Source: Gammaproteobacteria bacterium (GTDB taxonomy: Bacteria; Pseudomonadota; Gammaproteobacteria; CBDBNL01; JAAOII01). From it: 64,000 bases of DNA. Numbering within the stretch: the stretch's first letter is position 1; the number at the start of each line of letters is the position of its first letter. The stretch is taken from contig OZ242372.1 of NCBI GenBank assembly GCA_965209035.1, positions 992,001 through 1,056,000 on the forward strand, read 5' to 3'. The translations under genes were made by a program, and so were the position numbers. Shown here in pieces: positions 40,899-51,133 of this stretch. The notes below the pieces were generated by a model. It saw nothing but the letters and a program-made list of their open reading frames with translations. It ran no database searches and had not been told where the DNA came from.

Positions 40899-41457
40899 CT
40901 GACAAAACGAAGCAAGCTAGCTTATTGTTATTAATCATTTTGCACCTTAATTGCCAAACAGGTTCCGGCAAAGCACTACAAACACGATCGGGAAAACTAC
41001 CGGCCGCCGGAGACGAAATATTTGAACAAGAACAAGCCGGGCCTACAGGCACCAAACGAATGACTGACAAAACGAAGCAAGCCAGTTTATGGTTATTAAT
41101 CATTTTGCACCTTAATTGCCAAACAGGTTCCGGCAAAGCACTACAAACACGATCGGGAAAACTACCGGCCGCCGGAGATGAAATATTTGAACAAGAACAA
41201 GCCGGGCCTACAGGCACCAAACAAATGACTGACAAAACGAAGCAAGCTAGCTTATTGTTATTAATCATTTTGCACCTTAATTGCCAAACAGGTTCCGGCA
41301 AAGCACTACAAACACGATCGGGAAAACTACCGGCCGCCGGAGACGAAATATTTGAACAAGAAGAACAAGCCGGGCGACCTGCCTCAAACAAATGACTGAC
41401 AAAACGAAGCAAGCTACAAAACAAGCCACGAAACAAGCTGTGCTGTTAATTATTTTG
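40783..41457 (+). repeat. Fourfold tandem amplification (165-bp period) of the ccmE 3' end plus gpmI 5' start
   Basis: Units start at 40783, 40942, 41107 and 41272 (GCACCTTAATTGCCAAACAGGTTC...ATGACTGACAAAACGAAGCAAG). Confidence 0.95.
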
Positions 41458-43011
41458 GACGGCTGGGGAATGGGTGCCGATGAAGACGGCAATGCCGTTT
41501 TACATGCCGCTACTCCTAACTGGGATCGGTTGTGGTCGACGGCACCGCACCGCAGTTTGAACGCCGGCGGCGCGGCGGTGGGACTGCCTCTCGGTCAGAT
41601 GGGCAACTCCGAAGTGGGGCATTTAAATATCGGCGCCGGACGCATTGTGTATCAGAGTTTATTGCGGATTAACCGCGCCCTGCTATCGGATGCATCGGGC
41701 GAAGCATCAGGCGAAGCATCAAGTGAACATGCGACCAACACAGAACTGCAACACTTTTTTGCCGAACACCGGCAACGAGGGGGGCGTCTGCATCTGGCGG
41801 GACTCCTTTCCGATGGCGGTGTCCACAGTCACCTAAAACATCTGTTCGCCCTGTGCCGTCTTGCAAAAGAAGCCGGCATTACGGATTTTTGTGTTCATGT
41901 TTTCACGGACGGGCGCGACACGAATCAAAAGTCCGCCGCCGCCTATTTGGGGCAACTGGAAAAATGCTTGCATGAACTCGGCACGGGGACTATCGCTTCC
42001 GTATCCGGCAGATACTATGCGATGGACCGGGACAACCGATGGGAGCGAACCGCCGAGGCTTACGCGGCACTCATAGGCGGAGGCGGATGCAGAGACAGTG
42101 GCAGTGATGTCCCGGTTGCGCGCAGCCCGGCGGAAGGTCTGCAACAAAATTATGCGGCGGGACTGACCGATGAGTTTGTCAAACCCTTTCGGATTAGCGA
42201 TGCGCCGGCTTTCCAACCGCAAGACTCTTTGATTACCTTCAACTTTCGTGCCGATCGTATGCGCCAATTAATGAAGGCGCTTGCCTCTCCCGACTTTGGC
42301 GAATGGGAGCGGCCGTTTGTCCCGGCGAAGGAAAACTTGCTGACAATGACCCCCTATGACGAGAGCCTGCCGTTGCGATCTCTGTTCACGACAGAGCCGC
42401 CCGCGGATGTTCTGGGAGAAGTCTTGGCGAACGCCGGCAAGACGCAATTACGCTTGGCGGAAACGGAAAAGTTTGCCCATGTCACCTATTTTTTTAATGG
42501 CGGGCGGGAAGCCCCCTTCGCCGGCGAAGAACGCATCCTCATCCCCTCCCTCAAAGTGGCAACATACGACCTGGCACCGCAGATGCGGGCGGAGGAAATT
42601 ACCGATGCCCTCTGTCGGGGCATCGCATCCGGGAAATACGATTTTATTCTGTGCAATTACGCCAACGGCGATATGGTCGGACACAGCGGCAAGTTGGATG
42701 CCGCCGTCTTGGCAGTCCAAACATTGGATCTTTGTCTGGGAAAACTTCTCGCCCAAATCCGTCAGAGTAACGCGCATGCTCTTATAACGGCCGACCATGG
42801 CAACTGCGAAAAAATGATAACGGATGACGGTCTGCCGCACACCGCCCACACACTCAATCCCGTTCCGCTGGTGTACTGCGGCCCCAAGCAAGCGGTGTTT
42901 CATCGGGAACCCGCCGGCTTGTCTTCTCTGGCGCCTTCCGTGTTACAGTTGATGGGTTTGCCGCAGCCGGCGAAAATGGACGGGGTGCCTCTTTTCAGTT
43001 CTCTTGCTTAA
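41392..43011 (+). CDS. gpmI: 2,3-bisphosphoglycerate-independent phosphoglycerate mutase
   Basis: LIILDGWG, GQMGNSEVGH, DGGVHSH, GRYYAMDRD, AETEK, DMVGH, TADHGN. Confidence 0.98.
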   Translation: MTDKTKQATKQATKQAVLLIILDGWGMGADEDGNAVLHAATPNWDRLWSTAPHRSLNAGGAAVGLPLGQMGNSEVGHLNIGAGRIVYQSLLRINRALLSDASGEASGEASSEHATNTELQHFFAEHRQRGGRLHLAGLLSDGGVHSHLKHLFALCRLAKEAGITDFCVHVFTDGRDTNQKSAAAYLGQLEKCLHELGTGTIASVSGRYYAMDRDNRWERTAEAYAALIGGGGCRDSGSDVPVARSPAEGLQQNYAAGLTDEFVKPFRISDAPAFQPQDSLITFNFRADRMRQLMKALASPDFGEWERPFVPAKENLLTMTPYDESLPLRSLFTTEPPADVLGEVLANAGKTQLRLAETEKFAHVTYFFNGGREAPFAGEERILIPSLKVATYDLAPQMRAEEITDALCRGIASGKYDFILCNYANGDMVGHSGKLDAAVLAVQTLDLCLGKLLAQIRQSNAHALITADHGNCEKMITDDGLPHTAHTLNPVPLVYCGPKQAVFHREPAGLSSLAPSVLQLMGLPQPAKMDGVPLFSSLA

Positions 43012-43880: not shown

Positions 43881-45185
43881 TTAATCAGATAAGTCGGATA
43901 CGTCCTTGACGAGAATCTTGCCCTTGCGTTCCAGACAATCCTGTGGGACAGTGATCTTCTCTTTGGTCGGTTTATAGCCGCGCTCACGAAACCAAGCAAC
44001 CGACTGAGTACTCACCGCCACCAGATACCGATAGTTCCTTTCGGCCGCCAAACGCTCCATAGAACGCAGCAAACGACCGCCGTAACCGCGGCCGCCAAAT
44101 TCTTTGCCAACCACCACACATTCCAATTCCACATAACCGGGGTTCTCCTTAATCGGCGACAGCGCGGCACAGCCCACCAGAACGCCGTCTTGCTTAATAA
44201 TCCGAAACCTCTCCCGGGTATCTTCCAGTACCCGCAAAGAGCGCGGCCGCAAGATGCCTTCCTCTTCCAGCGGCTCTATCATTTTTTTTATTTGACGCAT
44301 ATCCGAAACTTCCGGGGCATCCAATCGCTCGTAGATATCCGAGTGCAACATCATCCCCATGCCTTTTGAGGTAAACAATTCTCCGAGCAGTGCGTTCTCA
44401 CATTCAACGGATATCAGATGGGCGCGGCTGACCCGACAAGTGCGACAATAGTATTCGGCAGCGCGCACAAAGGGCATTACCACATCGGGAAGCTCCCGCC
44501 GGCGCGTGTCCGTATCGCGAATATCCAACGCCAAGGAACGACATTCGGCGGGCAGAGAGTCCGTATAAAAAACAATCTTTTTGATGTCCCCCTCTTCGCA
44601 CAATGCGGCAATAATCTCTTGGGTCGGGAGGGCGTAATCTTGCCCGCTCTTATCCGTCGCCAGGTTTGTCAACAACACGATATTGCCTTCCGCAAGTGCG
44701 CGCGCCACCGCATCCGTATCCGCTTTGCGCAGTTTGCCGCGGCGTTGATAATCCGTCCCGTCTATGACACCGAGAGGCTGTGCCAGTAACCAATTCCCCG
44801 CCAAGACCGGCACATGCCCGAGGACATCATGCGCACTGCGGGTCAGGTTGCCGACACACTGCCCCGTTTTTTTCCACAACTTCTCCCTGAGGCTGCTCAA
44901 CTGCGCGGATGTAACGGCACGATTCTTCTCGCCGCGGCGAAAAGAAGGGACGGCAATTCCTTCCAAACAAATGATACAACGAATACCCAAACTGTGACAG
45001 ATCATCAGATCGCGCCAGAAATCCGTCCGCTTCTTGCCGCCGCCGATCAGATCCGTCGGCAACACAAATACCAAGGTCTTGTCTTTGTGTGCCATGATAT
45101 AGGGAACCGCCGACCTCAGGTCAACGGTGTTCGCCGGCTCGCGCGTCGACGCGAGCGAGTTCGGATGATTTGTTTTTTTCGGCAT
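43881..45185 (-). CDS. argA: Amino-acid N-acetyltransferase (N-acetylglutamate synthase), divergent
   Basis: 'RSAVPYIMAHKDKTLV', 'GN...AQPLGVIDGTDY', 'LLGELFT..G.G', GNAT domain 'IEPLEEEGIL..RS', 'WFRERG'. Confidence 0.88.
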   Translation of the reverse strand: MPKKTNHPNSLASTREPANTVDLRSAVPYIMAHKDKTLVFVLPTDLIGGGKKRTDFWRDLMICHSLGIRCIICLEGIAVPSFRRGEKNRAVTSAQLSSLREKLWKKTGQCVGNLTRSAHDVLGHVPVLAGNWLLAQPLGVIDGTDYQRRGKLRKADTDAVARALAEGNIVLLTNLATDKSGQDYALPTQEIIAALCEEGDIKKIVFYTDSLPAECRSLALDIRDTDTRRRELPDVVMPFVRAAEYYCRTCRVSRAHLISVECENALLGELFTSKGMGMMLHSDIYERLDAPEVSDMRQIKKMIEPLEEEGILRPRSLRVLEDTRERFRIIKQDGVLVGCAALSPIKENPGYVELECVVVGKEFGGRGYGGRLLRSMERLAAERNYRYLVAVSTQSVAWFRERGYKPTKEKITVPQDCLERKGKILVKDVSDLSD

Positions 45186-46228
45186 CAGTCCCTTTTTTGC
45201 AATGCAACAGATTTTGTAAAATTGACATATTCCGTCAGCTTGGCGAATGCCCCGCCTTCTTTTAGAACGGCACGCGCCTTCTCAATGCCCCGACCAATAT
45301 CCGTCGCCAGACCGGCAACATAAAGCGCCGCCCCCGCATTAAGAATTAAAAAATCGGCGCCGTTGCCGGCTTCGCCTTTCAAGGCGGCGCGCAGAATCTC
45401 CAAACTCTCCGCCGGTGAGGACACTGTCCGCCGTTCCGCTTCTTTTGCCGCGATTCCATAGTCGGCAGGGTCCAGGGTGAACTCGTCTATGTTTCCGTCT
45501 CGCAGTTCAACAATACGTGTTCGGGCAAACGGGCTGATTTCATCCATCCCATCCGCGGAATGCACCAGCAAGACATGCGCACTGCCCAGATCGCGCAGCA
45601 CCTCCGCAAGCGGGCGCAGCCAACGGGCGTCAAACAAACCGATCAACTGCCGCACACAACCGGCGGGATTGGTGAGAGGCCCCAAAAGATTAAAAATTGT
45701 GCGCACCCCCAGTTCGCGGCGAACCGGGGCAACATGCTGCATCGCGGCATGGTGGGCCGGCGCAAAAATAAACCCGAAGCCGACCCGATCCAAGGCCGCG
45801 GCAACCGCCGCGGCGGAAAGTTCCAATGTCGCACCCGCACCGGCAAGCACATCCGCACTGCCACAGGCGCCGGAAACGGCCCGATTGCCGTGCTTGGCTA
45901 CCCTTGCTCCGGCCGCGGCCGCCAACAGGGCCGCACCCGTGGATACATTAAAGGTGAACGAACCGTCACCGCCTGTGCCGCAAGTATCAATTAAATGCTC
46001 CGTGTTTTGAGGGCGCACTTTTAAGCTCAGTCGGCGCATCACCCGAACCGCCCCCTTAATTTCTTCGGCTGTCTCGCCTTTGGCCCTGAGTGCCACCAAC
46101 AAAGCGGAAATTTGCACCTGCGACAAGCTGCCCGCCATGATCTCCCCAATCAGGGACTCCGCCGCGGCGGCGGTCAGATCGTTGCCGTCAATTAACCGAT
46201 TGAGAATCGTCCGATATTCCATTCGCAT
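45185..46228 (-). CDS. trpD: Anthranilate phosphoribosyltransferase
   Basis: DTCGTGGDG..TFNVST, KHGNR, RTIFNLLGPLTNP, DGMDEI. Confidence 0.97.
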   Translation of the reverse strand: MRMEYRTILNRLIDGNDLTAAAAESLIGEIMAGSLSQVQISALLVALRAKGETAEEIKGAVRVMRRLSLKVRPQNTEHLIDTCGTGGDGSFTFNVSTGAALLAAAAGARVAKHGNRAVSGACGSADVLAGAGATLELSAAAVAAALDRVGFGFIFAPAHHAAMQHVAPVRRELGVRTIFNLLGPLTNPAGCVRQLIGLFDARWLRPLAEVLRDLGSAHVLLVHSADGMDEISPFARTRIVELRDGNIDEFTLDPADYGIAAKEAERRTVSSPAESLEILRAALKGEAGNGADFLILNAGAALYVAGLATDIGRGIEKARAVLKEGGAFAKLTEYVNFTKSVALQKRD

Positions 46229-46406: not shown

Positions 46407-47597
46407 ATGCCTAATCCAGAAATGAAACAACTTTCACAAGAAGAAGTCTTTCAACTTACCGAGACAGTCGCAGAGTTGGGCAAAAATCATGCTTTACTTC
46501 CACCTATTGGGGAAATTAATGCGTTTAAAAGTTTTCTTAACAAGAGTGGTCATCCGGATAAAGAAAACTTGGGCCAGAGAGATGGTGGCTGTACAAGAAG
46601 TGAGTTACTCACCCGATTTTTAATTTTGTGTGCTGTCTTAGATCAGGGGCCGGAGATTAAAGGCGTCCGAAAACTTTTGGTAAAAGTAATTAACCAGTTG
46701 TATGAACAAGAAATTCGTATATTTCATAAACCGGTTTCTTTTTTTCAAGAAATCGGTATATCTGTTGATTCAATATGGAATAACCATGAAAAAATTAAAG
46801 AAGAAAGAGCCGAAATCTGGGCAAGAGATAATCAATCCAATGCAAACAGATATAACTTGTATATGGATAACAGTAAACAAACACTGAGCTACGCTATTTA
46901 TCGTTGGGGTGTTCCTTTGGCACTTCCTTATTTATTGGAGAAAGAATGCTCGCGAAGAGAAACAGCACTATCAGATTATCTAAAGCAATTTAATTCCTCG
47001 GAGCACATGAGTAGGGAGGTAAAAGACCATCGTAAGTATGGATTAGGAAAAGCAATAGGTGATAAGGCATGTCATTTGTTTGCAAAATGGATGGTCTCTA
47101 CTTTCAGTCTTATACAAAGTGAGGAAAAATGCTGGGGAGAATATTCGTTTGAAATTCCCTATGACTCTAATGTGGGCCGAGTATTATGGCGCACAGGATA
47201 CTTGCTCAGGTGGGCATCGCTCCAAGACTACAAAGGATTTGGTGTTATACAACCCGAAGGTCAAAATAATTATTTACGTATTACTAATATTCGCGGAAAA
47301 GGCGTCTCAGATAAAACCATTTTAGATGACACATTAATACGGGAATATGAGAATATCGCTTTGGAACATATTAAGTCTCATAAAAGAAAACCGCAAAAAA
47401 TTGAGATACAAAGATTACAACATGTGTTTTTACGGCAACAAGAGTTAAAACCTTCTCACTTTGACGACGGATTGATTTACATTGGCACCGAATTTTGTTT
47501 TAATCATCAAGAGCCGAATTGTGAAGAGTGCCCATTAAAAGAGATGTGCCTTGCACATAATCATGCTCCACAATTAATAACTGATTATCACACTTAA
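46407..47597 (+). CDS. Uncharacterised HhH-GPD/endonuclease III-superfamily protein with C-terminal [4Fe-4S] motif
   Basis: 'AIGDKAC' (HhH with Lys), 'IPYDSNVGRV..RTG' (catalytic Asp segment), C-x7-C-x2-C-x5-C; visibly AT-rich relative to trpD. Confidence 0.7.
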   Translation: MPNPEMKQLSQEEVFQLTETVAELGKNHALLPPIGEINAFKSFLNKSGHPDKENLGQRDGGCTRSELLTRFLILCAVLDQGPEIKGVRKLLVKVINQLYEQEIRIFHKPVSFFQEIGISVDSIWNNHEKIKEERAEIWARDNQSNANRYNLYMDNSKQTLSYAIYRWGVPLALPYLLEKECSRRETALSDYLKQFNSSEHMSREVKDHRKYGLGKAIGDKACHLFAKWMVSTFSLIQSEEKCWGEYSFEIPYDSNVGRVLWRTGYLLRWASLQDYKGFGVIQPEGQNNYLRITNIRGKGVSDKTILDDTLIREYENIALEHIKSHKRKPQKIEIQRLQHVFLRQQELKPSHFDDGLIYIGTEFCFNHQEPNCEECPLKEMCLAHNHAPQLITDYHT

Positions 47598-48394
47598 GTA
47601 AGTAATTGTTGTTGATCTTTTTCCCCCGAAAGTCTGTAACGATTATGACGCAAGCGAGCCAGGGCAAACTCAAAGTATTCGGGGACAATTTCAAAACCCA
47701 GGTAATGTCTCCCAATGTGCTTGCTCATAAAGGCGACCTGGCCGGAGCCAAGAAAAGGATCCAAAACAAGGTCATTGGGTTCGCTCGCATATTCAAGGAG
47801 TTTCTTCACAATTTCGGCGGGGAGTTTGGTCGGGGTTTTTAGATCCCCGCTCCAATATTCTCGCTTAATTTCCCACACATCTTCCATATCCCGATATCTC
47901 AGACTCCCGCCGTTCATTCCCCGCGCATCGTTCGGATATCGGGCATTGGGGAAAAACTTTCTTTGTTTCTCGTTCTTGCAAAGGAACAGACAGTGATAAT
48001 GCGAACTAATGAAACGGCGGCGGGTATTCACCCCAAATTGATACTTCCAAATAATATGATTGATGGTTGTAAAGCCGACTGCGTCAATCGCATTGAGCAT
48101 ATCTTTCAGGTGATTCCAGCCGGAGAACACAAACGCACTGCCGGACGGCTTAAGCAGCCGATAAGCCTGCCTCAGCCAGTCGCGGGAAAAATCATAGTAG
48201 TTGCCGCTGTCAATTTCCCGATAGCCGGCAAGAACCCGGGAACCTTTGCGATTGTAGTTTGCTCTTTGTGCTTGAAAATCTATGCCAAACGGCGGGTCCG
48301 TAATAATGAGGTCGACACATTCCGGCGGCAGTCGTTGCATCCCCGGCAAGCAATCTTCATTAAAGATTTGGTCCTTTGCGATCTTGATTGTCAT
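47594..48394 (-). CDS. N4/N6 DNA methyltransferase, beta class
   Basis: TDPPF, 'TPTKLP', VLDPFLGSG. Confidence 0.93.
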   Translation of the reverse strand: MTIKIAKDQIFNEDCLPGMQRLPPECVDLIITDPPFGIDFQAQRANYNRKGSRVLAGYREIDSGNYYDFSRDWLRQAYRLLKPSGSAFVFSGWNHLKDMLNAIDAVGFTTINHIIWKYQFGVNTRRRFISSHYHCLFLCKNEKQRKFFPNARYPNDARGMNGGSLRYRDMEDVWEIKREYWSGDLKTPTKLPAEIVKKLLEYASEPNDLVLDPFLGSGQVAFMSKHIGRHYLGFEIVPEYFEFALARLRHNRYRLSGEKDQQQLLT

Positions 48395-48489
48395 GTTCTT
48401 TGAGAAAAATATCCTCGTGCATGAACTGCCCCGCGGGATCCGTCATACTTTATGTCGCTCGCCCGGCTCTTTGTTTGTCCGATGGAATG

Positions 48490-49203
48490 CTATTCCGGTC
48501 CGGCTTGCAACGAGGCATCTATATGGCGATATGGGGGTATGGGTTTTATGCCGGGCATGTCCCGGTCCCGGCAATTCTCCTTGTTCTCACCGCCAATGCA
48601 AAAATAGTGCGCCTTTAAATGTGGCAGATTGAAAATAAGAACCTCGGCGTGAAACAAAATCCCCGGAAATACATCTTTCGGTAAACTGACGATACTGCTG
48701 ATAGGCGGGTATTCGCCTCGCACAAACTTCATCCAACGGGCACTATGAAAACTCTGATTAAGCCGAAACCCGTAAGGGGTGAACAACACCATAGGAACAT
48801 CCAATCCAAATAATTCTATCGCTTTATGAAGCCATAACTCGGGCAATAGCGGTCTGCCACCATAATGCGCCTTGACATATTCCTTGGTTTTTTTATCAAT
48901 ATTAAAGGGCGGGTTGGCTATCACCAATCCCGGTTTGGGTATTTCGCCCTTTTCAATCGCCAGATAATTGCACACCTCGGTATTCGCGAACCCCTGATCT
49001 TCCACATCAATCCCCAACACCTCAAAGCCATTTTGCTGAAACGGCTTCAATAACGAGCCCGCACCCACGCAAGGATCAAAAACAAGGCCTTTAATGTGAG
49101 GACTGAGGATAGAATAAAGAAACTGACTGACAAAATCGGGAGTATGCACAGTCGCTTTCTTTGTTTCCCGATAAAAGTTATTTCTGTCTACCCTGTAAAC
49201 CAT
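48490..49203 (-). CDS. Small N6-adenine DNA methyltransferase-like protein, gamma-class motif order
   Basis: 'HTP', FDPCVGAGSLL, then NPPF; no obvious C-terminal target-recognition domain. Confidence 0.8.
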   Translation of the reverse strand: MVYRVDRNNFYRETKKATVHTPDFVSQFLYSILSPHIKGLVFDPCVGAGSLLKPFQQNGFEVLGIDVEDQGFANTEVCNYLAIEKGEIPKPGLVIANPPFNIDKKTKEYVKAHYGGRPLLPELWLHKAIELFGLDVPMVLFTPYGFRLNQSFHSARWMKFVRGEYPPISSIVSLPKDVFPGILFHAEVLIFNLPHLKAHYFCIGGENKENCRDRDMPGIKPIPPYRHIDASLQAGPE

Positions 49204-49318: not shown

Positions 49319-51133
49319 CTAATGCTTTTCCCGGGCGAACAAACTCTCCAACTCTTTTTGGTAGTCTTTGGTGCGCGCTTCTATTTCTTCCCGACTGAGG
49401 TTGGAAAGGTCGTTGCGCAGCATGCGTTGATCAAAGTCGCGAAAAATACGGCCGATCTCCCGGCTGCGTGCCGGCGTGAAGTCCAGTTCTTCCAACAGGT
49501 CGCAGGTCATCGCGAGACTGGTGTCAAACAGTTCGCGATAAATGAACTCCTCCTTCAATCCGGCTTGCAGCAGGGCGCGGGCATGGGTTCGGTCCCGGGC
49601 GCGCGCCAGCAATTTTAAGTGCGGGAAGTTCCGCTGTGCCTGTTCCACCATCTTGACGGAGGTCTTGACCGCGTCTATGCAGATCGCCATGCATCTTGCA
49701 TGCTCCGCTCCGGCCGCTCGCAAAAGTTTAAGGTCGGACGGATCGCCGTAGTAAACCTTGCTGCCGAAGCGGCGGGCAACTTCTATTTGCTTAATGTCCT
49801 TGTCCACCGCGACAAACGGGATATTTTGCGAGCTGAGGACTCTGGCGAGAACCTGGCCGAAGCGGCCGAAGCCCACAATAATCACCGGTCCCTCCTGTTC
49901 GGGAATATCGTCATAGGGACGCTCTGTCTGAGAGGACGGCAAGGGCTTGTGCAGTTTGGAAAATTTTCGCAACACATAGGGCAGCGCAAAAGAAATAAGC
50001 GGACTCAGAATCATTGACATGGAAATGAGCAGGGTCAGAATCTGACCATGGGTACCTCCCAGAATTGGATTTTCGGCCGCACTTTGAATCACAACAAATG
50101 CAAACTCGCCGCCCTGGCTGATGTTAACCGCCAATCTTATGGCGTCCTTGCCTTTCAGCCCTCCCAAGCGGGCAATGAAAAACATAACGAGCATTTTAAT
50201 TGCCAAGTAAACCAAACAGAGGCCAAAAACAAGCGGGGCGAATTGTTTCAGGAGTTCCCAATCAATACTCATACCGACCGCCAAAAAGAAAATACCGAGG
50301 ATGATACTTTTGAACGGCTCCACCTCGGATTCTATCTGATGGCGATATTCCGATTCGGACAAAACCAGGCCGGCAATAAAACCGCCCAAGGCCATGGAGA
50401 TGCCGATTAATTCCATCAGCGATGCCGAAACGAGGACGACGAGTAACGCCAGGGCCGTAAAAATATCCCGGCTCCTGACTCGGGCAACGAAACGAAAGAT
50501 AGGATTCAACAAATATCTGCCGCCAAAGTAAAGAGCCGCAACAACGGAAATCTTCAAGAGACCGGACAGTGCCCAGTGCATCTCACCTTCCGCCCCGCCG
50601 GCCGATGCGGCGGAATCCGGCGCCAAAAAGACCACCAGGGCCAGAGCCGGCACAACCGCCATATCTTGCAACAGAAGGATTGCCAGTTGCACTCGGCCGG
50701 AAGGCGTTACCAACTCGCCGTTCTCTTCCAGATTTTGCAAAACGATGGCCGTGGACGAGAATGCAAGACAGGTGCCGACAACCAAGGCAATTTGCCAGTC
50801 CGGCAAAAAGAGCATAAAAATCCCGCCGAAAACCGCAATACAAATCAGCATCTGCAGCGAACCCAGACCGAAGACCCGGTGCCGCATCTCCCAGAGTGTG
50901 CGCGGATTAATCTCCAAGCCGGTCAAAAACAGGAACAGAACCACCCCGATTTCCGAAAAATGCAAGATGGTCTGGGTATCTTCCACCTGCCGGGAAACAT
51001 AGGGGGCGATGAGCGCGCCGGCAACAAGATAGCCGACCACCGAACCGAGTTTCATATAGCGAAACAACGGCACGGCTATCACAGCCGCGCCAAGCAAGAT
51101 AACGGACAAAAGAAGGGTGTCGTGCAGGGTCAT
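49319..51133 (-). CDS. KefB/KefC-type CPA2 potassium efflux antiporter with RCK domain
   Basis: 'LGSVVGYL.AG', FSSTAIVLQ, 'SEYRHQIES..EPFK', GFGRFGQ, YYGD. Confidence 0.93.
   Translation of the reverse strand: MTLHDTLLLSVILLGAAVIAVPLFRYMKLGSVVGYLVAGALIAPYVSRQVEDTQTILHFSEIGVVLFLFLTGLEINPRTLWEMRHRVFGLGSLQMLICIAVFGGIFMLFLPDWQIALVVGTCLAFSSTAIVLQNLEENGELVTPSGRVQLAILLLQDMAVVPALALVVFLAPDSAASAGGAEGEMHWALSGLLKISVVAALYFGGRYLLNPIFRFVARVRSRDIFTALALLVVLVSASLMELIGISMALGGFIAGLVLSESEYRHQIESEVEPFKSIILGIFFLAVGMSIDWELLKQFAPLVFGLCLVYLAIKMLVMFFIARLGGLKGKDAIRLAVNISQGGEFAFVVIQSAAENPILGGTHGQILTLLISMSMILSPLISFALPYVLRKFSKLHKPLPSSQTERPYDDIPEQEGPVIIVGFGRFGQVLARVLSSQNIPFVAVDKDIKQIEVARRFGSKVYYGDPSDLKLLRAAGAEHARCMAICIDAVKTSVKMVEQAQRNFPHLKLLARARDRTHARALLQAGLKEEFIYRELFDTSLAMTCDLLEELDFTPARSREIGRIFRDFDQRMLRNDLSNLSREEIEARTKDYQKELESLFAREKH

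Follow-up and report, generated by a model that had tools for sequence, protein, structure and literature searches.

We identified a two-gene cassette that probably encodes a Type II-like restriction-modification (R-M) system acting on AGCT in a 64,000-nucleotide stretch of DNA from a Gammaproteobacteria bacterium (GCA_965209035.1, contig OZ242372.1, positions 992,001 to 1,056,000 of the forward strand; this whole stretch is called the window below). The first gene, R, encodes a 396-aa protein that we propose to be a dimeric [4Fe-4S] glycosylase/apurinic-apyrimidinic (AP) lyase from the helix-hairpin-helix (HhH)-GPD superfamily, and the second, M, encodes a 266-aa DNA methylase. It is very likely that R acts as the restriction counterpart to an AGCT methylase. 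Given this role, base-excision chemistry is likely, as judged from the modelled fold and the conserved residues. The two genes are located in the window as follows.

46407-47597, + strand: R gene, 396-aa HhH-GPD/[4Fe-4S]-type protein, proposed restriction glycosylase/AP lyase (open reading frame (ORF) map, fold model)
47594-48394, - strand: M gene, 266-aa beta-class N6/N4 DNA methylase, proposed cognate AGCT methylase (ORF map, PF01555)
47594-47597: TTAA common to both convergent stop codons (R and M)

A scan of one genome per prokaryotic species detected 76 R loci. They are mostly from Chloroflexota (many of them uncultured) and otherwise from Ignavibacteriota, Acidobacteriota, Pseudomonadota, Nitrospinota, Nitrospirota, Elusimicrobiota, Planctomycetota, Sumerlaeota, Bacteroidota, Fibrobacterota, Methylomirabilota, Myxococcota, candidate divisions and a Helarchaeota archaeon, a patchy distribution across phyla. 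A PF01555-type methylase adjoins R in 73 of the loci: 72 have an M homologue, and at L074, where R is most divergent (34% identity), a PF01555 methylase of another kind lies upstream and overlaps R by 4 bp. The other three are a locus with only 116 bp upstream (L051) and two R fragments from one genome (L070 and L075), and therefore cannot count against the linkage. The genes are arranged M-R on the same strand in 67 loci, where the stop and start codons often overlap, and R-M in five; the convergent order of the window was found in one other locus (L065). Constant linkage to the methylase clade had been suggested as a check in the original prediction, which was made from the letters of the window alone, and the scan bears out linkage to an N6/N4 methylase.

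Orthologues of the window-type M (58-63% identity) adjoin R in 21 loci. Motif IV of the partner methylase reads SPPY in 44 loci, DPPF in 22 and DPPY in five; as a rule of thumb, SPPY marks N4-cytosine methylases and DPP[YF] N6-adenine methylases. We placed the methylase types on a quick maximum-likelihood tree of R with support from the Shimodaira-Hasegawa-like approximate likelihood ratio test (SH-aLRT), built from 57 of the 76 loci and the window (L074, truncated R genes and loci without a methylase ORF were left out). On branches with good support, there are at least 5-6 switches of methylase type, for example between the sister loci L035 (SPPY) and L038 (DPPF). R therefore appears to be the constant element of the cassette and the methylase the element that was repeatedly exchanged.

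The DNA around R avoids AGCT. In the 72 carrier loci that span 5 kb or more (816 kb together with the cassette), with expected counts calculated from 3-mers, AGCT had the lowest observed/expected ratio (O/E) of the 16 palindromic 4-mers (632 seen vs 1860 expected, O/E 0.34). The per-locus median was 0.30, and 62 of the 72 loci were below 0.5. This depletion is on par with that of CTAG, which is a generally avoided 4-mer. All ten NAGCTN contexts were depleted (0.26-0.61), as expected for a 4-bp site, and the ratio was 0.29 in the 41 loci with SPPY-type methylases and 0.31 in the 21 loci with DPPF-type methylases. The window contains 40 AGCT sites vs 155.7 +/- 12.2 expected from dinucleotide-preserving shuffles, and its genome has an AGCT O/E of 0.40.

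The avoidance is tied to the gene. Four family- or order-level relatives without R (100 kb each) have AGCT O/E of 0.87, 0.85, 0.90 and 0.97, and 18 class-level stretches without R have a median of 0.91, none of the 18 being below 0.5. R is carried by 4 of 51 relatives of a Thermanaerothrix genome. Stretches far from R gave 0.19, 0.13, 0.09, 0.04 and 0.02 in five carriers of the Anaerolineae group and 0.47 in a Thioalkalivibrio carrier; the median of 25 relatives without R in the Anaerolineae comparison was 0.78.

Linkage and avoidance both bear on the explanation that R is a Dag-like, modification-dependent antiphage glycosylase and that the methylase next to it is unrelated in function. The precedent is given by Dag1 and Dag2, stand-alone proteins of the HhH superfamily that defend against phages with modified guanines (bioRxiv 10.1101/2025.10.29.685425). 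In the accessible text of that preprint the word 'methyltransferase' occurs 0 times, and Dag is not described there with methylases. The methylase of the R loci, by comparison, adjoins R in 73 of 76 cases, often through overlapping stop and start codons, and was always kept while its type was exchanged at least 5-6 times. A modification-dependent enzyme would also not deplete an unmodified 4-mer from its own host, and we consider this explanation scarcely credible.

Where the cassette decays, R is lost first. R is broken by one nonsense codon in L006 (adjoining methylase ORF intact) and by a nonsense codon at the invariant W167 in L036, has an internal deletion in L072 and is reduced to a 38-residue remnant in L076, with the methylase ORF intact in these three loci as well. 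The reverse, a full-length R with readable flanks but no methylase, was not found among the 76 loci. Such a pattern would be expected of an R that kills in the absence of M. The original prediction had suggested that R may occupy the restriction slot by excising unmethylated bases. The linkage, the avoidance of AGCT and the R-first decay agree with the slot, and for the excision of bases we rely on the model and the motifs, which make it a likely reading.

The AlphaFold model of R (32 sequences; predicted local distance difference test score (pLDDT) 86.6, predicted template modelling score (pTM) 0.86) is almost wholly helical, with a single short beta-hairpin. We compared it exhaustively with 48,161 PDB representative chains (VIA). 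Rows 1-23 all come from the HhH-GPD superfamily (Z 11.5-6.2), and the next, unrelated row has Z 4.6. The superfamily rows comprise the DUF2419 queuine salvage enzyme, MUTYH, Mig, endonuclease III, MutY, NTHL1, ROS1, AGOG, Mag1, OGG1, MagIII, AlkA and TAG. The match to Escherichia coli endonuclease III (2abk; Z 10.9, root-mean-square deviation 3.6) aligns 204 of its 211 residues across model residues 9-393, and R is therefore modelled as an endonuclease III-like core with ~190 inserted residues. The glycosylase fold had been proposed from the motifs alone, and the model recovered HhH-GPD glycosylases with nothing else above Z 4.6. Neighbours of R in the ESM Atlas also include HhH-GPD and AGOG clusters, which we treat as a lead only.

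Two of these matches, the mismatch glycosylase Mig (1kea, Z 11.1, 200 residues aligned) and the 5-methylcytosine glycosylase ROS1 (7yho, Z 10.2), raise the question of whether R is a methylation-linked repair or eraser glycosylase, which would correct damage at methylated AGCT like Mig or Vsr or remove the methylated base like ROS1. The tight linkage to a methylase would fit such a writer-repair pair as well. The partner methylases are, however, SPPY or DPPF/DPPY enzymes, N4- or N6-type by the rule given above, and deamination of N4-methylcytosine or N6-methyladenine leaves no T:G mismatch. A repair partner should also preserve its sites, yet carriers have lost most AGCT, and R was repeatedly broken with M kept and never found without M, as expected of a toxic R. 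The host, moreover, already has Nth and MutY. A repair or eraser function is thus highly improbable, and we return to R as a restriction glycosylase.

The residues of R that would carry this chemistry, and the insertion that is specific to the family, map to the following positions.

46602-46652, + strand: residues 66-82 (ELLTRFLILCAVLDQGP), helix resembling endonuclease III ELLIAVLLSAQ (correspondence by eye with host Nth)
46734-46946, + strand: family-specific insertion, residues 110-180, predicted homodimer interface (dimer model)
47037-47102, + strand: helix-hairpin-helix motif YGLGKAIGDKACHLFAKWMV, with Lys220 at 47064-47066 (conservation, model)
47154-47198, + strand: IPYDSNVGRVLWRTG, with Asp253 at 47163-47165, matching host Nth VDTHVFRLSNRTG (conservation, motif comparison)
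47496-47549, + strand: Cys364-x7-Cys372-x2-Cys375-x5-Cys381, proposed [4Fe-4S] cluster loop (conservation, TIGR01084, hhalign)

Four endonuclease III-like motifs had been read from the ORF beforehand, and all are present in the stated order (RFLILCAVLDQ, residues 70-80; AIGDKAC, 216-222; IPYDSNVGRV..RTG, 250-264; C364-x7-C372-x2-C375-x5-C381). Conservation in 179 non-redundant R homologues shows that they are not due to chance. K220 and Q80 are kept in all 179, D253 and R70 in 178 and E66 in 177, and G81 is conserved. Among the cluster cysteines, C364 is kept in 179 and C372, C375 and C381 in 178 each. The surroundings of the hairpin (G212, G214, K215 and G218) and of the aspartate (P251, S254, N255, G257, R258 and G264) are the same in 179 of 179 homologues. 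K220, D253, C364, C375 and C381 are also invariant in an alignment that reaches subfamilies of 23-36% identity and in which the beta-hairpin at 281-296 is variable (its AGCT-clade sequence is YLRITNIRG).

In the R model, helix 219-232 begins at D219/K220 and helix 254-262 directly follows D253, which forms its cap. In endonuclease III, Lys120 is the Schiff-base nucleophile and Asp138 the catalytic aspartate, and we propose that K220 and D253 occupy the corresponding positions. The host Nth reads ...LPGVGRKTANVVL...VDTHVFRLSNRTGL... and ends with C-x6-C-x2-C-x5-C, and R reads ...GKAIGDKACHLFA...YDSNVGRVLWRTGY... and ends with C-x7-C-x2-C-x5-C. A lysine at the HhH position is the signature of those superfamily members that are bifunctional glycosylase/AP lyases; in the host MutY this position is a serine (GIGRST).

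The linkage, the avoidance of AGCT and the R-first decay show restriction and not its chemistry. R could therefore restrict AGCT as a conventional metal-dependent phosphodiesterase, with the HhH-GPD scaffold only binding DNA and the active site placed in an insertion. The ~190 residues without a counterpart in endonuclease III offer room for this, and invariant D59, H107, E199, H223, E249 and D353 lie outside the canonical motifs with no assigned role. The known restriction nuclease cores (PD-(D/E)xK, HNH, GIY-YIG and PLD) are, however, built on beta-sheets, and the R model is nearly all helices with a single beta-hairpin. No nuclease family in Pfam, NCBIfam or PADLOC matched R, and it is the glycosylase/lyase lysine and aspartate and the cluster cysteines that remain unchanged in sequences as distant as 23% identity. 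We regard a phosphodiesterase as quite improbable and base excision by R as the better founded reading.

R is predicted to form a homodimer (score 0.80 vs 0.00 for the best control). The mark used was attained by 20 of 30 proteins whose solved structures are pairs of one chain, and by 1 of 23 whose structures are single chains. Across the dimer runs, contact agreement was at least 100% and partner pLDDT at least 89. The predicted interface is symmetric and consists of residues 110-124, 154-180 and 206-216, mostly within the largest family-specific insertion, and includes the invariant Q158, Y162, R166, W167 and G168. Residues 154-161, which are disordered in the monomer model (pLDDT <50), are part of it. 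The model supports, but does not demonstrate, binding as a homodimer. Endonuclease III and MutY work as monomers; a palindromic target would suit an R dimer, in which each strand has its own active site. The large insertions had originally been suggested as a possible source of sequence recognition. The largest (~110-180) is predicted to form the dimer interface and is not obviously sequence-reading.

We propose that M marks the AGCT sites of the host by methylation and, as a beta-class enzyme, probably makes N6-methyladenine because of its DPPF motif. R would scan DNA and reject methylated AGCT. At an unmethylated site each protomer would flip and excise one base, with Asp253 assisting, and Lys220 would form a Schiff base with the abasic sugar, so that the strand is cut by beta-elimination. 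Two such events per site would yield abasic sites or nicks in close opposition, which are difficult to repair, and AP endonucleases of the host may add breaks. We lean towards the wider claim that R is the first restriction enzyme on the HhH-GPD repair fold and the first with a [4Fe-4S] cluster, that it is homodimeric, that either N6-methyladenine or N4-methylcytosine protects against it, because R exchanged methylases of both motif types several times, and that base-excision restriction arose at least two times independently. REBASE-based surveys list N4-methylcytosine methylases for AGCT, according to the accessible text of one source (PMC10609329).

In the accessible text of a 2023 review, the PabI superfamily is the sole protein superfamily known for restriction by base excision (PMC10273834). 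The same text describes R.PabI together with R.HpyAXII and R.CcoLI as homodimers with a HALFPIPE fold, a curved antiparallel beta-sheet, that act on GTAC. As described there, PabI-type systems resemble R in methylase pairing, a 4-bp palindrome, an avoided site and often-inactivated genes, which for R are observed or proposed, and in a homodimer with Lys-based glycosylase and AP-lyase activity, which for R is proposed only (PMC10273834). The two differ in fold, as R is modelled as an all-helical HhH-GPD protein with a Cys4 loop, unrelated to the half-pipe beta-sheet, and in site (AGCT, as proposed, vs GTAC). R is also found mostly in uncultured Chloroflexota and in many other phyla. No PabI-family chain is among the VIA or Foldseek matches listed for the R model. 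In our interpretation, R is functionally similar to the PabI-family restriction glycosylases without belonging to that family. Restriction by base excision in a second, unrelated fold after PabI is the best reading of the cassette.

R shares with endonuclease III and MutY the fold and the C-terminal Cys4 loop, and with endonuclease III the HhH lysine at the start of the second helix and the motif D-[ST]-[HN]-V-x-R-x-x-x-R-T-G. It differs from both in being nearly twice as long, in the first cysteine spacing (x7 vs x6 in host Nth and MutY), in its predicted dimer, methylase linkage and patchy distribution, and in falling below every curated family threshold. With Mig.MthI (1kea), a T/G mismatch glycosylase, it shares an HhH-GPD/[4Fe-4S]-type fold. 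The Mig gene is associated with an R-M system, and Mig, of ~220 aa, repairs deamination damage arising from a 5-methylcytosine methylase. The partners of R are, in contrast, N6/N4-type methylases, and its genomic signature is site loss and not maintenance. Dag1 and Dag2 are a further case of an HhH-superfamily glycosylase fold recruited for defence. By the descriptions in the accessible text, Dag is compact, stand-alone and directed at modified guanine (Type IV-like), whereas R is methylase-linked and apparently directed at unmodified AGCT (Type II) (bioRxiv 10.1101/2025.10.29.685425).

Our literature searches did not turn up a restriction enzyme of the HhH-GPD type paired with a methylase, and a REBASE entry or a supplementary table could still name the family. 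If the proposal is true, base-excision restriction is a recurrent solution and not a curiosity, and the repair enzymes Nth and MutY are linked to genome defence. The R family would be a good model for toxic restriction that shapes genome sequence. A compact, sequence-specific and probably metal-independent 4-bp glycosylase would, if confirmed, also be a new reagent and a scaffold for programmable base excision.

The R family comprises 590 proteins at E <= 0.001, most of them of 388-400 aa and ~50% identical. A search of its profile against 1.84 billion 50%-identity representatives found only 138 clusters at E <= 0.001, and the family is therefore small and isolated, and sharply defined. A member is present in the cultured Anaerolinea thermophila UNI-1 (WP_013558736.1), and Thermanaerothrix daxensis GNS-1 and Thermanaerothrix solaris are carriers as well. 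Every named member is annotated as 'hypothetical', and no source gave any other name; an annotation as a conventional nuclease, which would have spoken against the original prediction, was not found. Distant subfamilies (P0297, P0301, P0303, P0305, P0307, P0317, P0318, P0321 and P0325) are ~415 aa long, others ~380 aa and ending in CGxGxGxFY. They keep the lysine, aspartate and cysteine residues and differ in the beta-hairpin 281-296, and may be sister enzymes with other recognition sequences.

Several results weigh against the proposed function or limit it, and the first group concerns the signal in the protein. For R, no Pfam, NCBIfam or PADLOC model reached its threshold, and the few sequence hints (PF10576, TIGR01084 and MUTYH) all lie in the C-terminal Cys loop. 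PF00730 had no match at E <= 1, though the same model detects the host Nth and MutY, and PF10576 scored 14.1 bits with a cut-off of 20.5. The TIGR01084 mutY model scored 26.1 bits vs a cut-off of 286.5 (E 5.5e-6, residues 327-387), and the NCBIfam nth model was not listed for R. Being below the curated equivalog cut-off, R is not an orthologue of Nth or MutY. A phmmer search of R against PDB sequences had a best E of 0.33 (MUTYH), and hhalign of the R family profile gave E 0.016 with host Nth and 5e-4 with host MutY, with the Cys loop alone aligned. Foldseek placed the same families as VIA on top for the R model, with a best E of 0.12 and no row at E <= 0.001. The equivalence of K220 and D253 comes from motif and helix position and not from residue-level superposition, and one part of the predicted dimer interface, residues 206-216, borders on the HhH hairpin.

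The second group concerns AGCT. The O/E was 0.61, pooled, in the 10 loci with intermediate methylases (36-47% identical) and at least 0.5 in 16 of the 76 loci, and 4 of the 25 R-less relatives in the Anaerolineae comparison were also below 0.5; the groups compared were defined by presence of R, and related genomes are non-independent. The genome of the window avoids ACGT (0.17), CTAG (0.29) and TCGA (0.37) more than AGCT, and therefore probably hosts several systems.

The last group concerns the window's own copy of R. Of 106 columns with a conservation of at least 93%, it deviates from the family at 6 (median 1; more deviations in only 6 of 179 sequences), namely by R65S, D83E, A256V, loss of G283, K284E and G383A, which include a deletion in the conserved G-K-G hairpin. 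Its terminal branch on the quick tree is 0.8 vs a median of 0.23, and the AGCT depletion in its genome (0.40) is milder than in the Anaerolineae carriers (0.02-0.19). Together with the convergent order, which recurs in only 1 of the 76 other loci, these features would fit a family that restricts and a window copy that is weakened or inactive, in a decaying cassette kept for its methylase. The 396-aa frame is, however, intact with all proposed catalytic and cluster residues, the window has 40 AGCT sites vs ~156 expected, and a second, 99%-identical sequence is present in the protein collection (P0001). We regard a weakened copy as doubtful, and as a question separate from the function of the family.

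Other tetranucleotide patterns were also observed. The genome of the window avoids GGCC (0.44) and GTAC (0.49), and its family-level relatives (G001-G003) avoid GGCC (0.12-0.34), TCGA (0.14-0.41) and GTAC (0.20-0.51) but not AGCT, which suggests several further restriction systems in this lineage. Three Anaerolineae-group relatives of G061 in which R was not found (L130, L159 and L164) have AGCT O/E of 0.13-0.19, which could reflect another AGCT system, an R gene lost recently or an assembly that is incomplete. An Anaerolinea-type carrier (G062; L154 and L155) shows extreme avoidance, with 2 AGCT sites in 40 kb vs 103 expected.

R was acquired horizontally by the genome of the window, as it is present in 1 of 61 related genomes, namely the window's own (G000), and lies in a low-GC patch (GC 0.36-0.38 across 46500-47500, inside R, vs 0.54-0.62 in the flanks). 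Searches of 72,556 plasmids and of 50,697 phage records gave no R match, and a scan of viral contigs confirmed no locus. The host encodes its own Nth and MutY (PF00730 scores 84.6 and 76.4 bits), and R is therefore an extra copy and not a housekeeping gene. Comparison with empty sites did not delimit the insertion, as the nearest genomes are 46-53% identical in TrpD and trpD and kef are ~96 kb apart in G001. The genes next to the cassette are the following.

45185-46228, - strand: TrpD-type flanking gene, PF00591 + PF02885 (Pfam)
48490-49203, - strand: second methylase, 237 aa, motif NPPF, small PF02384 family (ORF map, Pfam)
49319-51133, - strand: Kef-type antiporter flanking gene, PF00999 + PF02254 (Pfam)

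The full length of M is covered by its match to PF01555 (N6_N4_Mtase; E 1.8e-39). M also matches PADLOC MTase_II (E 5.4e-62) and has TDPPF as motif IV and FLGSG close to the C-terminus. The layout described in the original prediction was recovered throughout: the ORF map has an AT-rich 396-aa ORF converging on a DPPF methylase with a shared TTAA, both flanks of the block (trpD and the Kef antiporter) matched in Pfam, and Pfam, NCBIfam and PADLOC returned no nuclease family for R, M or the 237-aa protein. The pairing of R with both methylases was upheld for M only, since homologues of the 237-aa NPPF methylase occur in 0 of the 76 R loci. This methylase is a neighbour outside the conserved R-M cassette, and no restriction gene accompanying it was seen in the window. 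Its match to PF02384 is weak (E 1.1e-7), and we found 407 homologues, mostly of 205-225 aa and with 62-74% identity, in a compact and widespread family that includes members from candidate-phyla bacteria and Woesearchaeota. Further upstream, a 539-aa ORF (41392-43011, + strand) starts with short tandem peptide repeats (KQATKQATKQA) and contains SGEASGEASSE near residue 100.

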